From the sequence record MZ398247.1: a stretch of DNA of 39,224 bases, one strand, 5' to 3'. Positions 1 to 39,224 of this stretch are shown here, piece after piece. A program made the translations under genes and the position numbers. Position 1 is the stretch's first letter; every line of letters begins with the position of its first letter. The notes beneath the pieces are model-generated. The model was given only the letters and a program-made list of their open reading frames with translations. It searched no databases and was not told the origin of the DNA. This DNA comes from Enterobacteria phage IME177.

Positions 1-1228
1 TGGAGTCCCAATTTTCCGTGACCTAGCCTTCCGTAACAAGAAGGTTGGGGCCTCAGAGATTAAGGACCTGCACAATGTTATCTTCGGTAAGGAACTGGAT
101 GACTCAATCCGTCCGTCTAAACAGGATGTCATTGACCGTCTGCGATCTTACAGTGACCTCGGTCGTGGTACAGCTACAGCTCTGGGGACTGCCAAGTATT
201 ACACTGGCGAACTTGCAGTACGCTCTCCGTTCACTAAACTCCTCAACGGTACGACCAACTACCTGTTAGATGCTGGACGTCAAGGCTTCCTGTCTGACAT
301 CGTGGAGCATAGCCTGACTGGTAGTAAGCGTAAGTTCGATGACCGCTGGCTTAAGACCGCTGGTATCTCTGACGAGCAGTGGAAGGGCATTAAGTCCCTC
401 ATCCGTGAGTCAGTGACTCGTGGTCCAGACGGGAAGTACACCATCAAGGATAAGAAGGCGTTCAGTCAGGACCCAAGGGCTATGGACCTGTGGCGTATGG
501 GTGACACCATCGCAGATGAAACGTTACTCCGTCCTCATAAGCTGTCCAACATGGACGCCAAGGCTTATGGTCCTCTCGCTAAGACTGTCCTTCAGTTTAA
601 GAACTTCGTCATCAAGTCCATCAATGGTCGAACCATGCGAACATTCTATAACGCCACGAAGAACAACCGAGCGATGGACGCTGCACTGTCTACTGTGATG
701 TCTATGGGTCTGGCTGGTATCTACTACATGGCTCAGGCGCACGTCAAGGCTTACGCTATGCAGGACGGTCGAGACCGAGATTATCTCAAGCAAGCTCTGG
801 ACCCAACGATGATTGCCTATGCGGCCCTGTCCCGTAGTTCACATCTGGGTGGACCACTTGGGGTAGCTAACATTCTAGGTGGCATCGCTGGGTATGAGGA
901 CACTAAGATGCTCCGTTCGTCTATCCTCCCGCGTTCACCTACAGAGAAACCCGAACGTGCCATCTCATATGGTGCGGCTACAAGTGACCCTGTGATGAAT
1001 GTCGTTGGTAACTTCTTGGAGCAGGTCCCGGCTTTCGGCTATGCTGCTAACGTTGGAGCTTCGGCATACAACTTGGCTGGCTACCTCAAGGCTGATACTC
1101 GTGTCAACGAGCGGGACTACATGACCGGGATGTATAATACGTTCCGTGAACTGGTTCCGAACGACCCGATTACTCAGAAGTTGCTACTGGGAACGTTTGA
1201 GGAGCAAGGTATCCACATCAAGGACTAA
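1..1228 (+). CDS. gp16: internal virion protein D (gp16), C-terminal part; 5' part of the same gene is at 36505-39224 (circular permutation)
   Basis: Frame beginning at nt 2 is open from the window start to the stop at 1226-1228. Translation (GVPIFRD...LLNGTTNYLLDAGRQG...SRSS...NDPITQKLL) is colinear with the C-terminal third of T7 gp16 as recalled. Window end ca + base 1 t completes a His codon. Confidence 0.9.
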   Translation, partial: GVPIFRDLAFRNKKVGASEIKDLHNVIFGKELDDSIRPSKQDVIDRLRSYSDLGRGTATALGTAKYYTGELAVRSPFTKLLNGTTNYLLDAGRQGFLSDIVEHSLTGSKRKFDDRWLKTAGISDEQWKGIKSLIRESVTRGPDGKYTIKDKKAFSQDPRAMDLWRMGDTIADETLLRPHKLSNMDAKAYGPLAKTVLQFKNFVIKSINGRTMRTFYNATKNNRAMDAALSTVMSMGLAGIYYMAQAHVKAYAMQDGRDRDYLKQALDPTMIAYAALSRSSHLGGPLGVANILGGIAGYEDTKMLRSSILPRSPTEKPERAISYGAATSDPVMNVVGNFLEQVPAFGYAANVGASAYNLAGYLKADTRVNERDYMTGMYNTFRELVPNDPITQKLLLGTFEEQGIHIKD

Positions 1229-1292: not shown

Positions 1293-3824
1293 ATGTCCAC
1301 GATTACACAATTCCCTACAGGAAACACTCAGTACAGGATTGAGTTCGACTACCTAGCCAGAACGTTTGTTGTTGTTACGCTGGTGAATAGCTCTAACCCT
1401 ACCCTGAACCGTGTACTGGAAGTTGGTCGAGATTACCGATTCCTTAATCCAACGATGGTTGAGATGTTGGTTGACCAATCAGGTTTCGACATCGTTCGCA
1501 TTCACCGTCAGACTGGAACTGACTTAGTGGTAGACTTCAGGAATGGCTCAGTGTTGACAGCTAGTGACCTGACCAATTCAGAGCTTCAGGCTATCCATAT
1601 TGCAGAAGAAGGTCGAGACCAAACGGTTGACTTAGCGAAGGAATATGCCGATGCTGCTGGTAGCTCTGCTGGCAACGCTAAGGATAGCGAGGACGAAGCA
1701 CGCCGAATCGCTGCGAGTATCAGGGAAGCTGGTCTAATTGGCTATATTACCCGTCGCTCCTTCGAGAAAGGCTACAACGTTACAACATGGAGCGAGGTCC
1801 TGCTATGGGAAGAGGATGGTGATTATTACCGCTGGGATGGTACGCTTCCAAAGAGTGTTCCTGCTGGTTCAACTCCTGAAACTTCCGGTGGGATTGGATT
1901 AGGTGCGTGGGTTAGTGTTGGTGATGCTGCTTTAAGAAGTCAGATTTCAAACCCGGAAGGGGCAATACTCTACCCGGAATTGCAGATGGCAAGATGGCGT
2001 GATGAGGGTGATGTTCGAGGCTGGGGTGCTAAAGGGGATGGTGTAACAGATAGTACGGAGAATATAGCCGCTTCACTAAATTCTCAAAAAGCTGTCGTAG
2101 CATCAGAAGGTGTATTCTCTAGTTCTGGTATTAATAGTGATTACTGTAACTTAGACGGTAGAGGCAGTGGGGTGCTAAGTCACCGTTCCAGTACAGGTAA
2201 CTACTTAGTATTTAACAATCCACGTACAGGTCGCTTAAGTAATATTACGGTAGAAAGTAATAAGGCGACGGATACCACTCAGGGACAGCAGGTATCTCTT
2301 GCTGGTGGCAGTGATGTTACGGTAAGTGACGTTAACTTCTCAAACGTTAAAGGTACTGGTTTCAGTTTAATCGCATACCCTAATGATGCGCCACCTGATG
2401 GGCTTATGATTAAAGGCATTCGAGGTAGCTATTCCGGCTATGCCACTAATAAGGCGGCTGGATGCGTACTTGCTGACTCCTCAGTTAACTCCCTCATAGA
2501 TAACGTCATTGCTAAGAACTACCCTCAGTTCGGAGCTGTAGAGCTGAAAGGTACAGCCAGTTACAACATAGTTAGTAATGTTATAGGGACAGATTGCCAG
2601 CATGTAACCTACAACGGTACTGAAGGGTCAATAGCTCCTTCTAATAACCTTATCAAGGGGGTAGTTGCTAATAATCCTAAATATGCAGCGGTTGTTGCAG
2701 GCAAAGGTAGTACCAACTTAATCTCCGATGTGCTTGTAGATTTCTCAACCTCTGATGCTAGGCAGGCTCATGGTGTTACAGTAGAAGGTCCTGATAACGT
2801 CATAAATAATGTGCTTATGTCAGGGTGTGATGGTACTAACTCTTTAGGGCAAGCTCAAACTGCTACAATTGCACGCTTTATAGATACAGCTAATAACAAC
2901 TATGCGTCTGTATTTCCTAGCTACAGTGCTACAGGTGTTATTACTTTCGAATCAGGTTCTACCCGTAACTTCGTAGAGGTAAAGCATCCGGGAAGGAGAA
3001 ACGACCTTCTCAGTGCTACTGGTACTATTAGCGGTGCAGATACTATTGACGGCACTAATAATAGCAACGTAGTGCACGCCCCTGCATTAGGGCAGTACAT
3101 AGGCAGTATGTCCGGTAGGTTCGAATGGCGGATTAAGTCCATGTCACTTCCATCAGGGGTTCTTACCTCTGCGGATAAGTACAGGATGCTTGCCGATGGG
3201 GCTGTGTCATTAGCTGTAGGCGGAGGTACTTCTTCTCAAGTACGCCTGTTCACTTCTGACGGCACTTATAGGAATATATCACTTACTAGCGGTAACGTGC
3301 GTCTTCCTACCAGTAGCACAGGTTATTTGCAGTTAGGTTCTAATGCAATGACCCCAGATAGTACTAATACATACGCATTAGGTTCCGCAAGTCGAGCATG
3401 GTCTGGCGGTTTTACTCAATCAGCATTCACTGTTGTCTCAGATGCTAGGGATAAAACAGAGCCTCTTAATATCTCAGATGCTTTACTGGATGCTTGGTCT
3501 GAAGTTGACTTTGTGCAGTTTCAGTACTTGGACCGAATTGAGGAGAAGGGTGCAGACTCAGCTAGATGGCACTTCGGCATCATCGCTCAGCGAGCTAAGG
3601 AGGCCTTCGAACGTCACGGTATAGATGCACACCGCTATGGCTTCCTGTGCTTCGACAGTTGGGATGATGTATACGAGGAAGATGCCAATGGCTCTCGTAA
3701 ACTGATTACACCAGCAGGTTCCCGCTACGGTATTCGTTACGAGGAAGTACTGATATTAGAGGCTGCGTTGATGCGGCGTACTATTAAGCGTATGCAGGAA
3801 GCATTAGCTGTTATGTCTAAGTGA
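1293..3824 (+). CDS. gp17: tail fibre / tailspike protein: T7 gp17-like N-terminal anchor + pectate-lyase-3-like beta-helix domain + C-terminal intramolecular chaperone (peptidase S74-like) domain
   Basis: 843-aa ORF with RBS aaaggagg. N-terminus (EFDYLARTFVVVTL...HIAEEGRD) resembles T7 gp17 N-terminal domain; WGAKGDGVTDSTENIAASL is the hallmark start of pectate-lyase-3 beta-helix domains; C-terminus carries SDARDK...RWHFGIIAQRAKEAF, the pattern of self-cleaving chaperone domains of phage tailspikes. Confidence 0.88.
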   Translation: MSTITQFPTGNTQYRIEFDYLARTFVVVTLVNSSNPTLNRVLEVGRDYRFLNPTMVEMLVDQSGFDIVRIHRQTGTDLVVDFRNGSVLTASDLTNSELQAIHIAEEGRDQTVDLAKEYADAAGSSAGNAKDSEDEARRIAASIREAGLIGYITRRSFEKGYNVTTWSEVLLWEEDGDYYRWDGTLPKSVPAGSTPETSGGIGLGAWVSVGDAALRSQISNPEGAILYPELQMARWRDEGDVRGWGAKGDGVTDSTENIAASLNSQKAVVASEGVFSSSGINSDYCNLDGRGSGVLSHRSSTGNYLVFNNPRTGRLSNITVESNKATDTTQGQQVSLAGGSDVTVSDVNFSNVKGTGFSLIAYPNDAPPDGLMIKGIRGSYSGYATNKAAGCVLADSSVNSLIDNVIAKNYPQFGAVELKGTASYNIVSNVIGTDCQHVTYNGTEGSIAPSNNLIKGVVANNPKYAAVVAGKGSTNLISDVLVDFSTSDARQAHGVTVEGPDNVINNVLMSGCDGTNSLGQAQTATIARFIDTANNNYASVFPSYSATGVITFESGSTRNFVEVKHPGRRNDLLSATGTISGADTIDGTNNSNVVHAPALGQYIGSMSGRFEWRIKSMSLPSGVLTSADKYRMLADGAVSLAVGGGTSSQVRLFTSDGTYRNISLTSGNVRLPTSSTGYLQLGSNAMTPDSTNTYALGSASRAWSGGFTQSAFTVVSDARDKTEPLNISDALLDAWSEVDFVQFQYLDRIEEKGADSARWHFGIIAQRAKEAFERHGIDAHRYGFLCFDSWDDVYEEDANGSRKLITPAGSRYGIRYEEVLILEAALMRRTIKRMQEALAVMSK

Positions 3825-4383: not shown

Positions 4384-4387
4384 GTGT

Positions 4388-4437
4388 TAGACTCAAGGTC
4401 ATTACTGTATGTAGTGGCCTTTATGGTTAACACTAAC
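4388..4437 (+). promoter_or_regulatory. conserved hairpin element, candidate RNase III processing site (copy 1 of 3)
   Basis: tagactcaaggtcattactgtatgtagtggcctttatggttaacactaac; AAGGUCA pairs with UGGCCUU; near-identical copies at 12871-12920 and 20265-20312. Confidence 0.5.
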
Positions 4438-4484
4438 TAGTGGAGGCGACTCTACGTGAAATCTGATAAACCGGGAGGGCAACT

Positions 4485-7210: not shown

Positions 7211-7372
7211 CTACTGTAGTCAAGGACTTTAGGTAACACCTTAATAGAAGCTCACCTAGGGTCATCCTACTTATTGGTCTATCCTAGTGTCGCCTGACCT
7301 ACGGTCCTTGACCTACAGTAGCTGCCACCTACGGTCACTCGATGAGTTTTGGACCAAAAGTTTGAGACCACA

Positions 7373-7590
7373 TCTCACAGTTCAAGAACCTCAAGTCTCC
7401 CCATAGGCCCTCTTTAAGTCCAGACCAAAGGCCCTACCCGTTACTGCTCCTTGCAGTCACAGCCAGTCTATCATAAGGTTAGACCGATGGTCAAGACGTT
7501 AGGTCAACTATAGGTCTAGGCTATGGCTGGAGGTCAGGACGATAGGTAGGGACTATGGGTCTGTCTCTGAGTCTCTATCTGTATAACCAT
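7373..7590 (+). repeat. probable direct terminal repeat / physical genome end region (single copy in this permuted assembly); boundaries approximate
   Basis: tctcacagttcaagaacctcaagtctccccatagg resembles the T7 left end (TCTCACAGTGTACGGACCTAAAGTTCCCCCATAGGGGG as recalled); flanked on both sides by ACCTAC(A/G)GT short repeats, as the T7 terminal repeat is flanked by CCTAAAG-type repeats. Confidence 0.4.
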
Positions 7591-7593
7591 AGG

Positions 7594-7623
7594 TCCTACA
7601 ACCTACAGTCCTACAACCTACAG
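7594..7623 (+). repeat. perfect tandem direct repeat, 15 bp x 2 (tcctacaacctacag), part of an array of ACCTAC(A/G)GT motifs (also 7305-7345, 7630-7670)
   Basis: Exact repeat read from the sequence; at least 7 copies of the core motif between 7305 and 7670. Confidence 0.7.
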
Positions 7624-7794
7624 TCTAACTAACCTACAGTATCAACCATAAGACACCAACACCTACGGTCATAGACCCACAGTTAATAGACACAAAGCTA
7701 TAGACTTGAGGTCAACGACATGTTAGTCAAAGACTATATCCTATTACACCATGGGGCCGACGATAGCTTAATCAATATTATTTAAGATTACCTA

Positions 7795-12849: not shown

Positions 12850-12872
12850 CCTAAACTATCACTATAGGATTA
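12850..12872 (+). promoter_or_regulatory. phage RNA polymerase promoter (phi1.1-like), predicted +1 at 12867
   Basis: cctaaactatcactataggatta. Confidence 0.8.
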
Positions 12873-12920
12873 GACTCAAGGTCATGACTCAAAGTCGTGG
12901 CCTTCATGATTAACCCTAAC
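12871..12920 (+). promoter_or_regulatory. conserved hairpin element, candidate RNase III processing site (copy 2 of 3)
   Basis: tagactcaaggtcatgactcaaagtcgtggccttcatgattaaccctaac; same motif as 4388-4437 and 20265-20312. Confidence 0.5.
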
Positions 12921-12942
12921 TCATTCAATCAGGAGCTACACC

Positions 12943-14833: not shown

Positions 14834-14901
14834 CGGGATGTATAGCTTGCTTAGAGAAAGATGACCGTTACCCACATACATGCAATAAAGGAGCTAACAA
14901 T

Positions 14902-15371
14902 ATGAACGCACTTGAACAAGAGATTATCATTAAGTTGGTAGATAATAACGAAGGTCGCCCAGATGATTTGAATGGCTGCGGTATTTTCTGCCATAATGTC
15001 CCTTGCTACCTCTGTCCTGTAAATATCAATAAAAAGATAACCTTAGGTGAAATCCGAGCGATGGACATACGTAAGCCTAAACTGGAGAAACCAGAGGTAA
15101 CTACTACAGACGACCAGCCTTACGCTAAGGCTATCGACGACGTACGCAAGCCGTCCCACTATCAGTCTTTGACGGTGTGGAGTCCATTGAGATTATCGCT
15201 CGGTCCCTGACTGTCAGCGAGTTCCGTGGTTTCTGCATGGGTAACGTCCTGAAGTATCGACTCCGAGCTGGTAAGAAGTCCGAGCTGGCTACTATGGAGA
15301 AGGACCTGAACAAAGCAGCCTTCTATCAGGAGCTGTTCGACCTACATAGCGGTAAGTGCTATGACGCGTGA
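14902..15371 (+). pseudogene. gp1.7: gp1.7-like protein (putative nucleotide kinase) split into two overlapping ORFs (14902-15210 and 15177-15371) by a 1-nt frame disruption at a T run (15168-15170)
   Basis: N-part has Cys-rich CGIFCHNVPCYLCP; C-part ...IEIIARSLTVSEFRGFCMGNVLKYRLRAGKKSEL. Inserting one T in tcttTgac joins them into one ~155-aa ORF. Assignment to gp1.7 is by position and recalled similarity. Confidence 0.6.
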
Positions 15372-15588
15372 AGAACTTAAAGCTGTAGGGGTGAAGCGTA
15401 GAGCGCTCAGTTTTTACCGAGCATACAAGGCGCTACGTAAGGGTATGTTAGCGTTCTCATTAGGACACAGTGAGTATTATGACTCTGACCTCCTACCGTT
15501 TGCTTATATGAAGACTCCTAGTATGATTATTAGGGTAGAGGAGTATGACCATTCTGACGACTGTGTAATGGTGAACCGATATGCTTAA
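15361..15588 (+). CDS. hypothetical protein (75 aa)
   Basis: ATG overlapping the end of the preceding ORF; no motif recognised. Confidence 0.45.
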   Translation: MTREELKAVGVKRRALSFYRAYKALRKGMLAFSLGHSEYYDSDLLPFAYMKTPSMIIRVEEYDHSDDCVMVNRYA

Positions 15589-15675
15589 ACCGAGTGAGTG
15601 GTGCCGGGAGATGTACGAGAAGACTCTCAACCCGGACTACATTACGTTATACAACCAATGGAAGGAGCGTGGTCT

Positions 15676-15795
15676 ATGAACCAAGACCAGATTAACTTTG
15701 TGTGTCAGCTTATTAAGGAGTTCGTGGACTTCACTGATTTATCCGAAGAGGAACTTGTTAAGCTGGAAGAGATTCTCGACAAGGAGATTTTATGA
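15676..15795 (+). CDS. small acidic protein (39 aa); start uncertain (track ORF begins 15598)
   Basis: ATG with RBS ggag 9 nt upstream; stop overlaps gp2 start (ATGA). Confidence 0.35.
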
Positions 15796-15950
15796 CTGAG
15801 GTTGAGAAGAAGTACATCGTGGAGCTTGAGGGACGCGTTCAGTCCTTCGAGGTTCCGTTGTACGCAAAGTCTCTTGAAGAGGCTACCCTGAAGTCCCAAG
15901 AGTATGAGGACGCTGGTTTTGTGGTCGGTCGGATTCGTCCTGAGACCTAA
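15792..15950 (+). CDS. gp2: host RNA polymerase inhibitor (gp2-like)
   Basis: 52-aa ORF below track cutoff; [14 protein letters not shown]...[10 protein letters not shown] resembles T7 Gp2 (SFEVPIYAETLDEA...GFEVTRVRP as recalled); position before SSB. Confidence 0.65.
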
Positions 15951-15968
15951 ACTATCACTGTAGGACAG
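15946..15968 (+). promoter_or_regulatory. variant phage promoter (phi2.5-like), TCACTGTAGG core, predicted +1 at 15963
   Basis: cctaaactatcactgtaggacag; A to G change at -3 relative to the window consensus. Confidence 0.6.
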
Positions 15969-20326: not shown

Positions 20327-22498
20327 ATGTTTGACCTTAAGAGTATCTGGGGTTCTGATATCGAGACCAACGGTCTCCTTGATACAGTCTCCCAGTTTCA
20401 CTGTGGGGTCCTGATTAACGCCGAGTCGAATGAGACCCTTAAGTATGGGGTAACTCCGATGGTCGGTATCGTCGGTGGCTTCAAAGAGTATGTACAGAAG
20501 GTGGAAGAGATTGCCGCATCACCTGATGGTATGCTGGTATTCCACAACGGTATCAACTATGACGTCCCGGCTATTGACAAGCTGAAGCGTCTGTACTTTG
20601 GGAAACGCTTTAACTTCCCGAAACACAAGATGATTGATACCTTGGTGCTGGGCCGCTTGATGTATCCAAACATTAAGTTCTCAGACATGGGAGCAGTGAA
20701 AGCTGGTCGTCTGCCACCTAAGATGATGGGACGCCAGTCTCTTGAGGCTTGGGGCTATCGTCTCGGTGAGATGAAAGGTGAGTACAAACACGATTACGTT
20801 GCCAAGTGCAAGGCTGAAGGTGTCGAATATAAGGATGGGGACGAATGGTTGTTCCCGTCTCAGGAGATGCTAGACTATAACGTTCAAGACGTTGTGGTCA
20901 CACTGGCGTTGTTCAAGAAGTTCCTGACCGACAAGTATTACTTCCAGTCTGAACAGTTCGCTTTCGACCAGATTTATGCGTTGCGTCTGGAACATGATGC
21001 TGCGTGGACCTGTGCGAAGATGGAACGTAACGGCTATCCGATGAACACCGAGATGGTCGAAGGCTTATATCGTGAACTCACCGTCAAACGTGCAGAGTTG
21101 TTGGACAAGCTGCGTTCGACTTTCGGTAGCTGGTATGCACCAAAGGGAGGCAAGGAGTTCTTCAAGCACCCACGGACAGGCAAGGACCTTCCGAAGTATC
21201 CGCGAGTCGTGTATCCTAAGGTCGGGTCAGTATTCAAGAAGCCGAAGAACAAAGCTCAACGCTTAGGTCTGGAACCTTGCGAGTTCGACTCACGAGACAC
21301 GATGGAAGGAGCACCGTTCACGCCAATCACTTACGTTGAGTTTAATCCGGGAAGCGGAGACCACTTAGCGAAAGTCTTGATGGAGCGTGGTTGGGGGCCT
21401 GTGGACTTCACTGACACTGGGAAACCTGTAGTCGATGACGAGACGTTAGAACACGTTAAGCTACCAGACGCAGAGGCTCAGGCTTGCGTAGAGCTGGTCC
21501 GTGAGTATCTGGTAGTCCAGAAGCGCATCGGTCAGGCGGCTGAAGGTAAGAACGCATGGTTGAAACTTGTAGGTCCAGACGGACGTATGCACGGTTCAAT
21601 CAACCCATGCGGTGCAGTAACAGGACGTGCGACTCATAGTTCACCAAACATGGCTCAGGTCCCTGCTAACGGTGCTCCGTATGGTGAGATTTGCCGTGGT
21701 GCTTTCGGTGCAGCTTGGAACAAGACGGATGGTAAGCCAGACCCTTGGATTCAAGTGGGTGTGGATGCTTCAGGTCTTGAGCTTCGTTGTCTGGGGAACC
21801 GAGCAGCTCCGTTTGATGGTGGTGCCTATGCGAAGACTGTGGTCGAAGGTGACATCCACTGGGCCAACGCAGTAAACGCTGGTTTAGCACCTAACGTCCC
21901 ACGCGATAAATCGAACCACGACCATGATGCTTTCCGTAACAACGCTAAGACGTTCATCTATGCGTTCCTGTATGGTGCAGGGGCCGCTAAGATTGGACTG
22001 ATAGTCGGCGGTGGTAAGAAGGAAGGTTCAGCTCTCATGAAGAAATTCATTGAGGGTACACCAGCCATCAAAGACCTCAGGGAAGCTGTGAGTAATACGT
22101 TAATCTCAGACTCTAAGTGGGTGGACGGAGAGAACATCGTCAAGTGGAAACGCCGTTGGTTGCGCGGACTTGACGGGCGCCGTATCCACATCCGGTCGCC
22201 GCACTCAGCACTGAACGCCTTACTTCAAGGCGATGGTGCGGTAGTCTGTAAAACGTGGTTCACTTGGCTTGAGAGGAACCTAGAAGCTAAAGGCTACGTG
22301 CATGGCTGGGATGGTGACTTTGCGATTATGGCTTTTGTCCATGATGAAGTTCAAGTTGCCGCAAGGACTATGGAAATAGCTGAGGACATCGTTAAGGTGG
22401 CGCAATCCACAATGCGAGAGGTTGGAGAGTTCTACCAGTTCAAGTGTGTGCTTGACACCGAGGGAAAGATAGGGGCTACGTGGCGCGAATGTCACTAA
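20327..22498 (+). CDS. gp5: DNA polymerase (gp5-like, family A)
   Basis: 723 aa; exonuclease motif SDIETNGL, polymerase motifs VGVDASGLELRCL, KTFIYAFLYGAG, FVHDEVQV; colinear with T7 gp5 as recalled. Confidence 0.97.
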   Translation: MFDLKSIWGSDIETNGLLDTVSQFHCGVLINAESNETLKYGVTPMVGIVGGFKEYVQKVEEIAASPDGMLVFHNGINYDVPAIDKLKRLYFGKRFNFPKHKMIDTLVLGRLMYPNIKFSDMGAVKAGRLPPKMMGRQSLEAWGYRLGEMKGEYKHDYVAKCKAEGVEYKDGDEWLFPSQEMLDYNVQDVVVTLALFKKFLTDKYYFQSEQFAFDQIYALRLEHDAAWTCAKMERNGYPMNTEMVEGLYRELTVKRAELLDKLRSTFGSWYAPKGGKEFFKHPRTGKDLPKYPRVVYPKVGSVFKKPKNKAQRLGLEPCEFDSRDTMEGAPFTPITYVEFNPGSGDHLAKVLMERGWGPVDFTDTGKPVVDDETLEHVKLPDAEAQACVELVREYLVVQKRIGQAAEGKNAWLKLVGPDGRMHGSINPCGAVTGRATHSSPNMAQVPANGAPYGEICRGAFGAAWNKTDGKPDPWIQVGVDASGLELRCLGNRAAPFDGGAYAKTVVEGDIHWANAVNAGLAPNVPRDKSNHDHDAFRNNAKTFIYAFLYGAGAAKIGLIVGGGKKEGSALMKKFIEGTPAIKDLREAVSNTLISDSKWVDGENIVKWKRRWLRGLDGRRIHIRSPHSALNALLQGDGAVVCKTWFTWLERNLEAKGYVHGWDGDFAIMAFVHDEVQVAARTMEIAEDIVKVAQSTMREVGEFYQFKCVLDTEGKIGATWRECH

Positions 22499-22507
22499 GG
22501 AGATAAG

Positions 22508-22834
22508 ATGGGAGGTGTGGCAACCTTGCGCTTCCATAAGATGCCTACTGGATGTATCGTCTGTGTATCACATCGTCGCAATCATGATGGATACTTTCGG
22601 TACACGGTAGGCTCTGCCCGTAAGCCGGGACGCAAGGCGTTTATGTTTCACCGATGGGTGTGGGAACAGAAGCGCGGACCCATACCGGATGGCTATGAGA
22701 TAGACCATTTGTGTTTGAATCGTGGGTGCTGTAACGTAGAACATCTACAATGTATTCCAAAGCGTGATCACGTCATCAAGACGAACCGTGAGCGCAAACT
22801 TATTAAGAAGGAGAAGACTAATGGCTATTACTAA
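22508..22834 (+). CDS. HNH homing endonuclease
   Basis: 108 aa; EIDHLCLNRGCCNVEHLQ is an HNH motif with zinc-binding Cys; directly downstream of the DNA polymerase gene. Confidence 0.8.
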   Translation: MGGVATLRFHKMPTGCIVCVSHRRNHDGYFRYTVGSARKPGRKAFMFHRWVWEQKRGPIPDGYEIDHLCLNRGCCNVEHLQCIPKRDHVIKTNRERKLIKKEKTNGYY

Positions 22835-23105
22835 ACGTATTCGTGTAAGTTTCGACCTGAAGACGGTTGTTAGCTCAACGAAAGAAGAGACCATGTGTCG
22901 CCAACTGGCTGAGATGACTAAAGCCTACGCTGAGGGTGAGAAGCTGGATGGACTTCAGGTGGTTATGGTCAAAGCAGCAATCGAGTCAGGCCCTGAGTCT
23001 GCCCTTGAAATTGCCCTCAAGAAGACCATCAAGGAGGAGCTGGTAGACGCCTTTGGTGATGACCAGTTCGGAGTATCTAACCTGCGATTCGAGTTCAAGC
23101 AATGA
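22821..23105 (+). CDS. gp5.5: gp5.5-like protein (94 aa)
   Basis: ATG at 22821 with RBS aaggag; MAITKRIRVSFDL resembles the T7 gp5.5 N-terminus as recalled; overlaps HNH gene end. Confidence 0.6.
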   Translation: MAITKRIRVSFDLKTVVSSTKEETMCRQLAEMTKAYAEGEKLDGLQVVMVKAAIESGPESALEIALKKTIKEELVDAFGDDQFGVSNLRFEFKQ

Positions 23106-33163: not shown

Positions 33164-33634
33164 ATGTATATTCGCAAGGCTACGGAACCGGATGTCCACT
33201 ACTTTCTGTGGCATCTTTCAGCAGATGATGTTAATGAGTGCAAAGCAAACTACGGGTCAACCGTTGGTCTCTCTGAAAGACTGCTTAAGCACCTATCTCC
33301 GTCATCTGTGGTTTTAACGAACGGTGTAGGCGAAGTGTTTGCCTATGGTGGAAACCAAGGGGATAACGTATGGTTCTTGACTTCCGGTCTGGTCTATAAG
33401 CTGAGACCTAAAGAGAAGCGAGAGTTCATAAAGCGTATCTCTGAGTACAGGGACTTAATGTTAGACCAATACGGGACCATCTGGAACTACGTGTGGTCAG
33501 GCAATAAGTCTCACATTAAATTCTTGAAGTTGCTTGGGGCTAAGTTCCATGATGATTGGACTATCAGCCCGGTAACTGGTGAGCGTTTTCAATTATTCAC
33601 TATCTCTAAGGAGGACGTATGTGTGAACCCGTAA
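33164..33634 (+). CDS. gp13: internal virion protein A (gp13-like)
   Basis: 156 aa ORF with RBS taaggag after phi13-like promoter; assignment by position. Confidence 0.7.
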   Translation: MYIRKATEPDVHYFLWHLSADDVNECKANYGSTVGLSERLLKHLSPSSVVLTNGVGEVFAYGGNQGDNVWFLTSGLVYKLRPKEKREFIKRISEYRDLMLDQYGTIWNYVWSGNKSHIKFLKLLGAKFHDDWTISPVTGERFQLFTISKEDVCVNP

Positions 33635-34206
33635 GTATCGGTCTAGGAATCATGGCTGTAGCCGGGGCCACTATGTCCGCATCCCAACAGGCCAAGGCAG
33701 AAGGTGCAGCAATTGACGCTCAGAACCGACAGGCTCAGGAAATGGTTAAGCAGATGAACTACTCTGACGCCAACCTGAAGATGCAGGAGCGAGACCTGAA
33801 GGAGCAGCAGATGGCTGAACTGACAGAGACCACTCTAAACGGTATCCGCAATCAGGGGATGGTCCGAGCTGCAGTGGCTGAGTCAGGTCTGGAAGGTAAC
33901 TCTATGGACAGGATTGAACGTCAGGTCGAAGGAGATACAGTCAAGGAGCGAGCAGGGATTACCGAAAGTTACAACCGCGACTATGCGGCTATCTTCGGGA
34001 ACCGTATCGCCAACATTGAGAACACCAAGTCTGCTATCCGTGGTCAAGGTAAAATCATCAGGACCAGCCCACTGGCTCATGCACTTAATGTTGCTAACTC
34101 CGGGATGCAAGGTTACGCTGCTGGTGAATCAATGTCTGGGTCATCCAGCTCTGGCGGTTCTGCACCAATTAGGGCTGCTAAAGGCACACCTACAGGTCAT
34201 AGCTAA
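33619..34206 (+). CDS. gp14: internal virion protein B (gp14-like)
   Basis: 195 aa; MCEP..., ...GNSMDRIERQVEGD..., ...NRDYAAIFG... colinear with T7 gp14 as recalled. Confidence 0.88.
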   Translation: MCEPVSIGLGIMAVAGATMSASQQAKAEGAAIDAQNRQAQEMVKQMNYSDANLKMQERDLKEQQMAELTETTLNGIRNQGMVRAAVAESGLEGNSMDRIERQVEGDTVKERAGITESYNRDYAAIFGNRIANIENTKSAIRGQGKIIRTSPLAHALNVANSGMQGYAAGESMSGSSSSGGSAPIRAAKGTPTGHS

Positions 34207-34217
34207 TAGGAGGACTA

Positions 34218-36500
34218 ATGGCTAGTAATATTGAATCAGCTCTGGCTAATCGGACTATGGGTCGCGGCAGAGCGCCGGGTAAAACTATCGCCGTAAACTA
34301 TCAAGCAGCCAGCGTTCAGGCTCCGACTGGTGACTCCGGTCTGGCTCGTGCGTTAACCAACTTCGTTGAGTCTGGGACTGGATTGTACAAGCAGTTCAAG
34401 GACGATGAAAAGACACGGGCCGACGAGAGGTCTAACGAGATTATCCGTAAGCTGACACCTCAGCAAAGACGTGAGGCTATCCAGAACGGCACATTGCTGT
34501 ATCAGGATGACCCTTACGCTATGGAAGCACTTCGAGTCAAGACTGGTCGTAATGCTGCCTTTGCTGTAGACGACGAGATTAACGTTAAGATTCAGAACGG
34601 TGAGTTCCGTACACGTCAGGACATGGAAGAGTATCGCCACCAGCGACTTCAGGATGCCGCTAAGTCCTATGCTGAAGAGGCAGGTATTAACCCTACCGAC
34701 GAGTTCTTCCAGCGTGGCTTCAACGATAACATCACGGACAGAAACATCGCTATCTATGGGTCTTTCAATAAGTATTTCAGCAAGCAGTCTGAAGAGACAG
34801 CAATGTTGAACACTCGTATTGAGATGAACTCATTCCTGAACGATGGCGACCTGATGCGTTCACCTGAGTCTGGCAAGACATTCATGGCCTACCTTCGGGA
34901 TGGATTGACGACTGCTGCTATACCTTCGGACCAGAGAGCACGGGAGGTCATTACCCAGACGGTCCGTGACGCAATCCAGAAGTCAGGAGGCTCAAACTTC
35001 CTACAGCAAGTCCGTGGCGAGCGTATCACCCTTAACGGTGTTGACGCTACCATCGAAGAGATTGTAGGACCTGACGTCTTCAATGCTGCTACGGTTGAGG
35101 CCCAAGGTACTGAGTATAAACTGGTGGCTAAGTATCAGGAAGACTTGTCGTTAGGCGTTCAGTCTGCGATTCTTCAGGATGACCCAACCATCGGTCTGGC
35201 CCAGATTCAGAAACTCAAGGAGCAGAACAACCTGCTTCAGCCGGGTGAAGAACTAACGCCTCAGCGTCAGATGCTTATTAATGCCGAAGCCAGCTTACTG
35301 GAAGCGGTCAAGCGTAAGTCTGCTGAACAGGCAAAGGAGAACACTAAGTTAATCCAGACCCAGAACAAGCAACTGGTCATCGACCAAGTTTATCAGCGAC
35401 GTCTGGCTGGGGACAACGTGTCCACCAACTATGAGGACCTTCCGGTCTCTGAAGCTACAGGAGAGTTCAAGCGTTCAGACATGAACAACTATGCGTCTGC
35501 TAAGCTACAGCAGATTGACCAGATGGACATCCCTGAGGCTGCTAAAGACGCACAGAAGGTGGCATTGTTAAGGGCTGACACTAACAATGGTCCGTTCCGT
35601 AATGCCTTCCAGACGCTGACTCAGGACGCTGCTGGTGAGTGGCAAGCTGCGGTCATCCGTGGGCAGTACGACCCAGACAAGATGCAACGCTTCGAATCTC
35701 TTCGTCGTGCCTACACTCAGGACCCTTCAAGTTTTGCTGCTCTGTATCCTGACCAAGCTCAGTTGTTCTCTACGTTCGACCAGATGGACAAGATGGGTCT
35801 GGACCCTCAGACGATGATTGAAGCTGATAAGCAAGCTGCAAGTCAAAGCCGTGAGATGCGCATGGAGTCAGACAAGGCGTGGCAGGAGTTGAAGAATGAC
35901 TCTCGGAATAAGGACCTTTCGCGTCTTCCTACGTCTCTGGACGCAAGTGCTCGTAAGGTCTGGGACTCATGGTACTATCGTACAGGTAACGCTGACGCTG
36001 CAACTCAGCAGACTCAACGCTGGCTGAATGAGAACACCATAACGTTCCAGTCTGAAGGTTCTGACGGTAAGTCCATCGGCATGGTGTCCAAGCACCAGCT
36101 TATGGTCGGGGATAACCCAGAGTCGTGGCAGGTGGGTCGAGACATTATCGACACCGCTCGTAAGCAGCTCATTAAGGCCAACCCTTGGGTAGTGAACTCT
36201 CAGTTGTCCGTTGTTGAACAGAACGGCTCTATCTTCCTCCAAGACGCTACAGGGACTATTCGTATTCGGTACGATAAAGAACTTGTAGGTAAACTCTACC
36301 GCGAACAACAGCAGAAGGCACAAGATGCCGCATACGCTCAGGCAGAACGTGACGCTAACAAGCGAGCGCGTATCGTCGGGACTAAAGCTGCTGGTGACAA
36401 ACGTCGAGCTGACCGAGAGGCCAACATCGAGAAGCGCGGTGGGATGTACAATGACGTCTCACTGGAGGGTATCGCAAAAGTACTAATTGGTAAGGAGTAA
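34218..36500 (+). CDS. gp15: internal virion protein C (gp15-like)
   Basis: 760 aa, RBS taggagg; size and position match T7 gp15 (747 aa). Confidence 0.9.
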   Translation: MASNIESALANRTMGRGRAPGKTIAVNYQAASVQAPTGDSGLARALTNFVESGTGLYKQFKDDEKTRADERSNEIIRKLTPQQRREAIQNGTLLYQDDPYAMEALRVKTGRNAAFAVDDEINVKIQNGEFRTRQDMEEYRHQRLQDAAKSYAEEAGINPTDEFFQRGFNDNITDRNIAIYGSFNKYFSKQSEETAMLNTRIEMNSFLNDGDLMRSPESGKTFMAYLRDGLTTAAIPSDQRAREVITQTVRDAIQKSGGSNFLQQVRGERITLNGVDATIEEIVGPDVFNAATVEAQGTEYKLVAKYQEDLSLGVQSAILQDDPTIGLAQIQKLKEQNNLLQPGEELTPQRQMLINAEASLLEAVKRKSAEQAKENTKLIQTQNKQLVIDQVYQRRLAGDNVSTNYEDLPVSEATGEFKRSDMNNYASAKLQQIDQMDIPEAAKDAQKVALLRADTNNGPFRNAFQTLTQDAAGEWQAAVIRGQYDPDKMQRFESLRRAYTQDPSSFAALYPDQAQLFSTFDQMDKMGLDPQTMIEADKQAASQSREMRMESDKAWQELKNDSRNKDLSRLPTSLDASARKVWDSWYYRTGNADAATQQTQRWLNENTITFQSEGSDGKSIGMVSKHQLMVGDNPESWQVGRDIIDTARKQLIKANPWVVNSQLSVVEQNGSIFLQDATGTIRIRYDKELVGKLYREQQQKAQDAAYAQAERDANKRARIVGTKAAGDKRRADREANIEKRGGMYNDVSLEGIAKVLIGKE

Positions 36501-36504
36501 CATA

Positions 36505-39224
36505 ATGGCGACTCGTGGTATTCGCAATAACAATCCGGGTAACATCCGGGTAAGTAAGGACCAATGGGAAGGAATGACTGGAGATGATGGCGCATTCGTC
36601 ACCTTCGATAGTCCAGAGTCTGGCGTCCGAGCTTTAGGTAAAAACCTGCTGTCCTACGGTCGCCGAGGTTATGACTCCATCGAGAAGATTATCAACCGAT
36701 GGGCACCTCCTAACGAGAACGACACTAAGGCTTATATCGACTCAGTGGTGGCTGCAACTGGTATTCCAGCTACCCAGAGTCTCGACCTATCGGACCCTGA
36801 CACCCTGTCTTCTCTGGCTCAAGCTATCAGCTTCCATGAGACAGGCTCCCGGTACGACCCTGAAGTCTATCAGAAGGGAGTCGCACGAGCGCTCAATGGC
36901 ATTAGCCCAAAGACTCCACCAGTAAGCGCTAACGTATTTGACGCACTCACGGAAGGACTCAAGGCTAAACCTAAAGTAGCTCTTGGTGAGAACCTTCCGA
37001 CCGCTGCTGGTCTAAACATTGAGGGTCAAGCACCTGAAGCTCCCAACGAATCGTTCGGTGAGATGTTCTATAAGTCTACTGGCGAGACCATGCAGGAACG
37101 AGAGGATCGCTCTACGTGGTTCGGTTTCGGTGCTGCTACAGAAGCTGAAGTGAAGAACTCTATGGTAGGCGTGGCTATCCGCGCTGGGCAGACAGAGGAC
37201 TCACTTGATGTCATTGGCGATGTGTTCAACCCGACCCGCTGGAACAACCATAAGTGGACTCGTGAAGAGCTTGACCAGATTCGTAACGCTGGGGTTCTGC
37301 CTCAGTATTACGGAGTCATTACTGGTGGCTCCCCTCAGAACCTGACCGAGCTTATTAACTTGGCGCTTGAGAACCAGAAGTTGGACCAAGAGAAGGCCAA
37401 GGCTGGGACTGGTGCTCAGTTAGCTGCTGGTGTGATTGGCGCTGGTGTAGACCCTCTGACATACGTTCCTATCGCTGGACAGGTTGGTAAAGGCGGTAAG
37501 CTGGTCAACAAGATGTTCACCGTGGCTGCTCAATCTGGAGCACTGGCTGGTGTGTCCGAGATGGCCCGTACCTCAGTGGCTGGTGGTGATGCTCATGTGG
37601 CTGAAGCTATCCTTGGTGGTGCTCTCTTCGGTGGTGGTATGACTGCTATCGCTGATGGGTTAGGCAGAGCCTTAGGTCGCAACACTAATGAGTTTGCTGG
37701 CCCAGCTACACGTCTGGAAGCTCGTGAGACCGCTCGTAACGTTGATGGTCAGGACCTGTCTCGTCTCCCTATTCAGGAAGGTGAGCAGACCTTTAGTCAT
37801 CAAGGCGTTAAGTTCGCTGACGTTCCGAACGAGCCGGGTAGTGTACGACTGGAAGATGGTTCAATCCTGATTGGTGAGAACCCTCTGAACCCTAAGACAC
37901 GTCAAGTCTTTGATGAAGTGATTGAGCCTGAACGTGCCGCTGCTGGTGTGAACCTTGGTGGGCTTACTGAGATTGGCCTGAAGCTGCTTCGGTCAGAGAA
38001 CCCTGAGATTCGTGGAGTCGCTGCTGACTTAGTGCGTTCACCAACTGGTATGCAGTCAGGGGCCTCAGGTAAAATCGGGACCACTGCGTCAGACGTATTT
38101 GAGAGACTTCGTGCTGTGGACCATCGGTTCTACAACGACATCGACGACGCGGTTACTGAGGCGCTCAAGGACCCATACTTCCAGACAGCATTCTGGCGAG
38201 ACTCTGGCGCATTCCGTCAGGACATCTACCAGCGTGTGTCTATGGCTATTGAAGACGGAAGTGGGAACCTGAAGGCTGAACTGACTCCGGGAGAACTGAA
38301 AGTATATGACCTGCTGAAGAACCAGTTTGACGCCAAGCGTGAGATGATGGAGAACCCGGCGATGTTTGGTCGTCCAGACGCTCAGTCTATCTTTCCGGGT
38401 AGCCGCTTCAAGGGAACCTACGTCCCGCATGTGTATAGCAACCAGATGAAGGAGCTGTACATCAAGGAGCTTGGGAGTCCAGAGGCACTACAGGAGGCCA
38501 TCAAGAAGTCATGGTTGACCAGCTATGCGTCTCGACCTGAGGTCAAGAAACGTGTGGACGAGGCACTCTTAGAGGCTGACCCTACGTTGACTCCAGAAGG
38601 ACTTGCGGCTGCGGTCGATAAGTACGCCAACGATAAGGCTTATGGTATCTCTCACACCGAGCAGTTCGAGCGTTCATCCGTAATGGAAGAGAACATCAAT
38701 GGTCTGGTGGGTCTGGAGAACAACAGCTTCCTTGAGGCTCGTAACCTGTTCGATAGCGATATGTCAATCGTCCTACCTAACGGTCAGACCTTCAGTGTCA
38801 ACAACCTGCGTGAGTGGGACATGGACAAGATTGTCCCGGCCTACAACCGTCGAGTTAATGGCGATATTGCTATCATGGCTGGTACAGGCAAGACCACGAA
38901 GGACATGAAGGACTTGGTTGAGACCATGATGAACAAGGCTGGGGATGACGGTAAGTTGAAAGGTGAAGTATCTACCTTACGTGACACCTTGAAGATTCTA
39001 ACTGGTCGTGCTCGACGTGATGGCGCTGATGATGCAGCCTTCGCTACCGTGATGCGCACAATGACAGACCTATCGTTCTTCGCTAAGAATGCCTACATGG
39101 GTGTTCAGAACTTAACGGAGATTGGTGGTATGCTGGCTCGTGGCAACGTTCGTGCAATGCTGCATCAGAACTTAACGGAGATTGGTGGTATGCTGGCTCG
39201 TGGCAACGTTCGTGCAATGCTGCA
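36505..39224 (+). CDS. gp16: internal virion protein D (gp16-like) with N-terminal lytic transglycosylase-like domain; 3' part continues at window positions 1-1228
   Basis: ATG 36505 after taaggag; ...SPTGMQSGASGK..., ...SRFKGTYVPHVY..., ...YGISHTEQFERSS..., ...NGDIAIMAGTGKTTKD... colinear with T7 gp16 as recalled; frame open to window end. Confidence 0.93.
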   Translation, partial: MATRGIRNNNPGNIRVSKDQWEGMTGDDGAFVTFDSPESGVRALGKNLLSYGRRGYDSIEKIINRWAPPNENDTKAYIDSVVAATGIPATQSLDLSDPDTLSSLAQAISFHETGSRYDPEVYQKGVARALNGISPKTPPVSANVFDALTEGLKAKPKVALGENLPTAAGLNIEGQAPEAPNESFGEMFYKSTGETMQEREDRSTWFGFGAATEAEVKNSMVGVAIRAGQTEDSLDVIGDVFNPTRWNNHKWTREELDQIRNAGVLPQYYGVITGGSPQNLTELINLALENQKLDQEKAKAGTGAQLAAGVIGAGVDPLTYVPIAGQVGKGGKLVNKMFTVAAQSGALAGVSEMARTSVAGGDAHVAEAILGGALFGGGMTAIADGLGRALGRNTNEFAGPATRLEARETARNVDGQDLSRLPIQEGEQTFSHQGVKFADVPNEPGSVRLEDGSILIGENPLNPKTRQVFDEVIEPERAAAGVNLGGLTEIGLKLLRSENPEIRGVAADLVRSPTGMQSGASGKIGTTASDVFERLRAVDHRFYNDIDDAVTEALKDPYFQTAFWRDSGAFRQDIYQRVSMAIEDGSGNLKAELTPGELKVYDLLKNQFDAKREMMENPAMFGRPDAQSIFPGSRFKGTYVPHVYSNQMKELYIKELGSPEALQEAIKKSWLTSYASRPEVKKRVDEALLEADPTLTPEGLAAAVDKYANDKAYGISHTEQFERSSVMEENINGLVGLENNSFLEARNLFDSDMSIVLPNGQTFSVNNLREWDMDKIVPAYNRRVNGDIAIMAGTGKTTKDMKDLVETMMNKAGDDGKLKGEVSTLRDTLKILTGRARRDGADDAAFATVMRTMTDLSFFAKNAYMGVQNLTEIGGMLARGNVRAMLHQNLTEIGGMLARGNVRAML
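39105..39224 (+). repeat. perfect 60-bp tandem direct repeat (2 copies, 39105-39164 and 39165-39224), in frame within gp16, ending exactly at the window end
   Basis: Both copies read tcagaacttaacggagattggtggtatgctggctcgtggcaacgttcgtgcaatgctgca; encodes a duplicated 20-aa segment QNLTEIGGMLARGNVRAMLH that T7 gp16 has once. Confidence 0.9.

Follow-up and report, generated by a model that had tools for sequence, protein, structure and literature searches.

We found that the record of Enterobacteria phage IME177 (MZ398247.1) ends in a perfect tandem repeat of 60 nt inside gene 16, and that the second copy of this unit is very probably a leftover of assembly or file handling and not a biological feature. 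Throughout, the window denotes the whole stretch of DNA that was analysed, 39,224 nt in length. The true gene 16 would most likely contain the unit once and encode a 1295-aa protein, and the assembly circle would measure 39,164 bp. The coordinates of the features concerned are collected in Table 1.

Table 1. Position of the 60-nt repeat, of the gene that contains it and of the predicted terminal repeat in the window
Feature	Position	Strand	Description
Copy 1 of the unit	39105–39164	+	Genuine gp16 segment, residues 868–887 (QNLTEIGGMLARGNVRAMLH); identical residues at the same position in K1F gp16
Copy 2 of the unit	39165–39224	+	Redundant, probably artefactual; missing from all relatives examined; ends the window
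Gene 16, 5′ part (internal virion protein D, DNA-ejectosome component)	36505–39224	+	906 open codons; runs off the window end
Gene 16, 3′ part	1–1228	+	In frame from the window end; stop codon at 1226–1228
Predicted direct terminal repeat	7373–7575		~203 bp, one interior copy; K1F base 1 (TCTCACAGTTCAAG...) corresponds to 7373 and the last base of K1F to 7575

The two units were 100% identical. TRF reported a period of 60, 2.0 copies, 100% matches and a score of 240, and a direct string comparison confirmed the identity, in agreement with a first-pass annotation of this DNA that had described two identical 60-bp units at these positions. That annotation had also placed the end of the window exactly at the end of the second copy, and the sequence bears this out: the final base of copy 2 is the final base of the window (39224). 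The repeat did not extend leftwards (39104 is t, 39164 is a). Across the circular junction it extended rightwards by one chance base, since window base 1 (t) is the same as the first base of the unit, and this fortuitous t lengthens the periodic region to 121 nt. At the two edges of the duplication, microhomology amounts to 1 nt (t) on the right and none on the left, which is compatible with chance. We observed no divergence between the copies. The pair was the sole long perfect direct repeat in the 39-kb window, the remaining repeat families of which are phage promoters. A chance origin of the repeat was rejected, since 60 matches out of 60 cannot be accidental in 39 kb.

Both copies lie at the 3′ end. 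The window starts with TGGAGTCCC... and not with the 60-nt unit; an arrangement with one copy at each end, in which the first n bases equal the last n bases, was not found. The layout is thus [rest][U][U], as against [U][rest][U], the classical layout of a circular contig that was left untrimmed. In the orientation given, the repeat did not follow the lines of a sequence file, as 39104 (651 × 60 + 44) is no multiple of 60, 70 or 80, and alignment to file lines in that orientation was rejected. Only in the reverse complement does the repeat coincide with the lines, of which the first and the second (60 bases each) are then the same.

The duplication lies in the open frame of gene 16, which is divided between the two ends of the window. 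The first-pass annotation had joined the terminal ‘ca’ to the initial ‘t’ to give a His codon followed by GVPIFRD..., and we confirmed this reading across the window end and start, through to the stop codon. It had further claimed an in-frame duplication that adds 20 residues to gp16, and translation gave the same result: 60 nt make 20 codons, the duplication keeps gp16 open as far as the stop, and the unit encodes QNLTEIGGMLARGNVRAMLH twice in gp16 as written. The 5′ fragment of gp16 matched phrog_342 (PHROG 342, ‘internal virion protein with endolysin domain’) with an E-value of 2.7e-208, and the 3′ fragment matched positions 867–1229 of the same profile with an E-value of 6.2e-116; together the two fragments tile the profile from position 51 to position 1229. 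When we spliced gp16 with a single copy of the unit, the resulting protein of 1295 aa aligned end to end and with 0 gaps to K1F gp16 (1295 aa), at 97.45% identity. The two-copy gp16 is 1315 aa long, and its only gap relative to K1F gp16 was a 20-residue insert at 868–887. The gp15–gp16–gp17 synteny in the window also matches that of K1F. By these comparisons, the gene that hosts the repeat is, once one copy is removed, an ordinary T7-group gene 16.

The relatives carry the segment once. A 1400-nt query containing both copies and the junction matched 234 phage records, 213 of which covered at least 80% of the query, and among the matches listed, 40 of 40 covered the query in 1339–1340 nt, which corresponds to one copy. 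A 468-nt junction query gave 1069 ranked records, which extend from K1F-like phages to T7 and the phages of Yersinia and Klebsiella; in an even sample along this ranking, every record whose match crosses the junction had a 60-nt deficit, T7 included. Five IMG/VR contigs carry the single-copy junction, and in the three of these that were aligned to the window (L001–L003) the sequence from 39165 onward ran straight into window base 1, contiguously. The segment is likewise present once in solved structures, both of T7 gp16 (7eyb, 7k5c, 9jyy and 6yt5) and of the K1F-type ‘Gp29’ (1295 aa; 9vvp). The statement that T7 has this segment only once can therefore be widened, as T7, K1F and every other relative examined were single-copy.

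The unit corresponds to approximately residues 889–908 of T7 gp16 and is strongly conserved between the K1F and T7 groups (QN[LI]TEI[GA]GM...GNVRA). It falls within the gp16-C domain. This helical region, residues 411–1118, sits in the core stack and has been proposed to form a cytoplasmic hub after ejection (PMC8954989).

The junction between the two copies was absent from all of the collections that we searched. A 70-nt query across the copy-to-copy junction, ...GCAATGCTGCA|TCAGAACTTAACGG..., had no contiguous match among 50,697 phage records; every top match consisted of two pieces, in permuted order, on a single stretch of 61 nt, and the best E-value was 1e-9. The exact 50-nt copy junction had 0 matches in IMG/VR and 0 in JGI metagenome contigs, and a wobble-tolerant 44-nt junction pattern had 0 matches in IMG/VR, JGI metagenomes and GTDB genomes. 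As a positive control, the 44-nt pattern returned 1 match, the junction of the window itself. For IMG/VR these zeros are to be read against a small denominator, the single-copy junction being present in only 5 contigs.

Judged by its alignments, the window represents the complete genome of a Kayfunavirus (a K1F-like coliphage of the T7 group), assembled as a circle. K1F aligned along almost the whole window, and the best whole-genome relative among the 50,697 phage records was Escherichia phage pO2, at ~96% identity. The unique sequence of the K1F right arm runs into 7373 and that of the left arm leaves 7575, and the records of several relatives begin at the base equivalent to 7373. The predicted terminal repeat opens with the canonical T7-group terminus TCTCACAGT and contains a 24-nt insertion (7440–7463) relative to the 178-bp repeat of K1F. 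Because the single terminal-repeat copy sits inside the window, the two window ends must stem from a cut made at an arbitrary place in gene 16. The terminal repeat was evidently collapsed, or a concatemer junction read through, during assembly, and the circle was then opened inside gene 16. A rotated circular assembly with the repeat at its junction, as the first-pass annotation had described, is what we observed, in that the K1F ends map to the interior of the window and gp16 joins in frame. The 60-mer as the phage’s own terminal redundancy was rejected, as the true terminal repeat maps elsewhere. For the case of an artefact, the same annotation had expected the true genome to be 60 bp shorter. 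This is right for the assembly circle but not for the packaged linear genome, which would be ~39,367 bp long because a second terminal-repeat copy is added to the 39,164-bp circle; this packaged form would end at positions 7373 and 7575 of the window.

Around the predicted terminal repeat we noted two further features. A 15-nt tandem repeat, GTCCTACAACCTACA, occurs in 3.1 copies at 7593–7640 (TRF), just right of the predicted terminal repeat, and motifs of the CCTACAG/CCTACGG type are scattered over 7280–7690. Both are reminiscent of the arrays of short repeats on either side of T7-group concatemer junctions.

Elsewhere in the genome, nine conserved sites on the + strand, CT[A/T]A[A/G]CTATCACTATAGG, are located at 1225, 6774, 9531, 12851, 14533, 24744, 27571, 28567 and 33113 (repeat families D1 and D2). 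These sites precede gene clusters and look like promoters for a phage RNA polymerase of the K1F type. A 52-nt direct repeat of 85% identity, TTAGACTCAAGGTCAT...GGCCTT.ATG.TTAAC.CTAACT (family D4), occurs in two intergenic regions, at 4387–4438 and 12870–12921, the latter copy directly after a phage promoter. The gp17 tailspike (1293–3824, 843 aa) matches phrog_14895 and combines a T7 tail-fibre N-terminal adaptor, a Tail_spike_N domain and, at the C-terminus, an intramolecular chaperone (Peptidase_S74). Alignment of its gene with K1F gp17 is limited to the first ~760 nt, and the K1F endosialidase body (K1F 33424–35930) has no counterpart in the window, which suggests that the capsule or receptor specificity differs from that of K1F. 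The DNA polymerase gene (20327–23105, 723 aa) is uninterrupted; the split-polymerase region of K1F with its HNH endonuclease insertion (K1F 14845–15967) had no alignment to the window.

The route by which the extra copy entered the record we infer to be as follows. When a linear T7-group genome with direct terminal repeats is assembled from short reads, the assembly would collapse both repeats or read through concatemer junctions; the assembled circle would then have been cut at some arbitrary position, in this record within gene 16, and the 60 bases at the cut written twice. Most likely, a fixed-length end overlap (k = 60, or k − 1 for k = 61) would have been left untrimmed when the circle was closed and re-opened. 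On such overlaps, the literature searched yielded a general statement only, concerning (k−1)-mers shared in assembly graphs. Both copies lie at the 3′ end, and a second step is therefore needed, either a re-opening of the circle or a duplication during file handling; in the former case, the overlap would have stayed in place at closure, and the new opening would lie one unit beyond it. Removal of one copy restores the sequence of the relatives across the junction, which supports a redundant copy at the closure point. The observed cut falls exactly after 2 × 60 nt. A real repeat in a de Bruijn graph would be expected to branch after window base 1, and a cut after 2 × 60 would instead fit a fixed-length copy. 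The first-pass annotation had considered a terminal-overlap artefact most likely; our results support the artefact, but not a terminal overlap in the literal sense, as the unit does not make up the first 60 nt of the window.

Several points weigh against an artefact. The [rest][U][U] layout requires an extra handling step that is not explained by the overlap itself. The commonest assemblers do not use 60 as a default k (SPAdes uses 21/33/55/77/99/127, and MEGAHIT 21...59...141). The duplication is in frame, for which the chance is 1 in 3 if it is an artefact and which a viable real duplication requires. It is also the only long repeat in the genome, and a low-k assembler faced with a real duplication would tend to open the circle nearby as well. 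Finally, the closest relative in the phage collection is only ~96% identical, so that this collection contains no resequenced copy of the same phage; exact look-ups of the gp15, gp17 and 3′ gp16 products likewise gave no entry.

Within the artefact explanation, a less likely route would be the duplication of a single 60-column line of sequence. In this case, a FASTA- or GenBank-style line would have been duplicated while the record was in the opposite orientation, and the record later reverse-complemented. The period of the repeat is exactly 60, and SPAdes, Biopython, EMBOSS and GenBank usually write their sequences in lines of 60 characters. The reverse complement opens with two identical 60-base lines, and such an event would place both copies at one end without any rotation. 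However, it calls for two ad hoc steps, the line duplication and then the reverse-complementing, and in the orientation given the repeat is off the 60-column lines. Editing errors are also much rarer than untrimmed assembly overlaps. We regard this route as rather improbable, and the little weight that it carries is already part of the high probability given to the artefact as a whole.

The main competitor of an artefact is a real, fixed, in-frame 60-bp tandem duplication in gene 16, produced by replication slippage or illegitimate recombination, at which the assembler opened the circle. The phage would then make a 1315-aa gp16 in which residues 868–887 are repeated. The first-pass annotation had kept such a duplication in play, and we do likewise, although we consider it unlikely. 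The frame is kept and gp16 remains open; the repeat is the only long perfect one and hence a natural breaking point for a de Bruijn assembler with k ≤ 60; and the [rest][U][U] layout looks more like a resolved repeat than a literal end overlap. Against this, the matches in the phage collection comprise over 1000 gp16 genes, and the duplication occurs in none of those sampled; it is also missing from IMG/VR, JGI metagenomes and GTDB genomes. It would affect one of the best conserved stretches of K1F-type and T7 gp16, one that appears once in every solved structure. The absence of divergence between the copies also speaks against it, and the boundary microhomology of only 1 nt may do so too. The cut is placed 1 nt within the periodic region of 121 nt and would be off the graph branch point, and for assemblers with k > 120 the coincidence with a contig end would be 1 in 39,000. 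A mixed phage stock, in which a minority carried the duplication (or the library contained chimeric or PCR-duplicated molecules) and the variant path was threaded into the consensus, is at most compatible with a repeat at a graph break point, and we consider it highly improbable, as a minority bubble is normally dropped for the path of higher coverage, the window has no other sign of heterogeneity and all of the weaknesses of a real duplication apply to it too.

If the second copy is the artefact that we favour, its main relevance is data hygiene. Its retention makes the genome length wrong by 60 bp, and the annotation then either gives gp16 20 residues too many or divides it into two partial genes at the ends of the record; tools that look for terminal or tandem repeats would flag a feature that does not exist. 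The ends of the record are not the physical ends of the phage, and the record should be re-opened at the terminal repeat. If instead the duplication were real, the gp16 packaged by this phage would contain a perfect tandem repeat of 20 residues in the conserved gp16-C region, a part of the internal core that has been proposed as the cytoplasmic hub of the DNA ejectosome. This would mean that the core and ejectosome region of gp16 tolerates a sizeable insertion, a modest curiosity. The tryptic peptide AMLHQNLTEIGGMLAR would exist only if the duplication were true.

The features of the record can be compared with three known systems. As a member of the T7-group gp16 proteins, the gene product shows full-length homology to K1F gp16 (YP_338126, 1295 aa), T7 gp16 (1318 aa) and the Gp29 protein, the structures of the last two being given above, and its gene order is that of K1F; among the members examined, the extra 20 residues in the conserved gp16-C region, that is, the second 868–887, occur in the window only. 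The direct terminal repeats of T7-like phages, which are 178 bp long in K1F, have in common with the 60-mer that they are direct repeats associated with sequence ‘ends’. By contrast, the phage’s own repeat is non-coding and ~203 bp long, whereas the 60-mer is coding, lies in gene 16 and is 7.4 kb away and unrelated. The third comparison is with the untrimmed end overlap of circular contigs, for which identical ends are the signature by which tools such as CheckV and VirSorter recognize circular or complete viral contigs. The window shares with such contigs a perfect, undiverged repeat of fixed length at the point of linearization, and removing one copy yields the sequence of all relatives; it differs in that both copies are at the 3′ end and in that 60 is not a default k.
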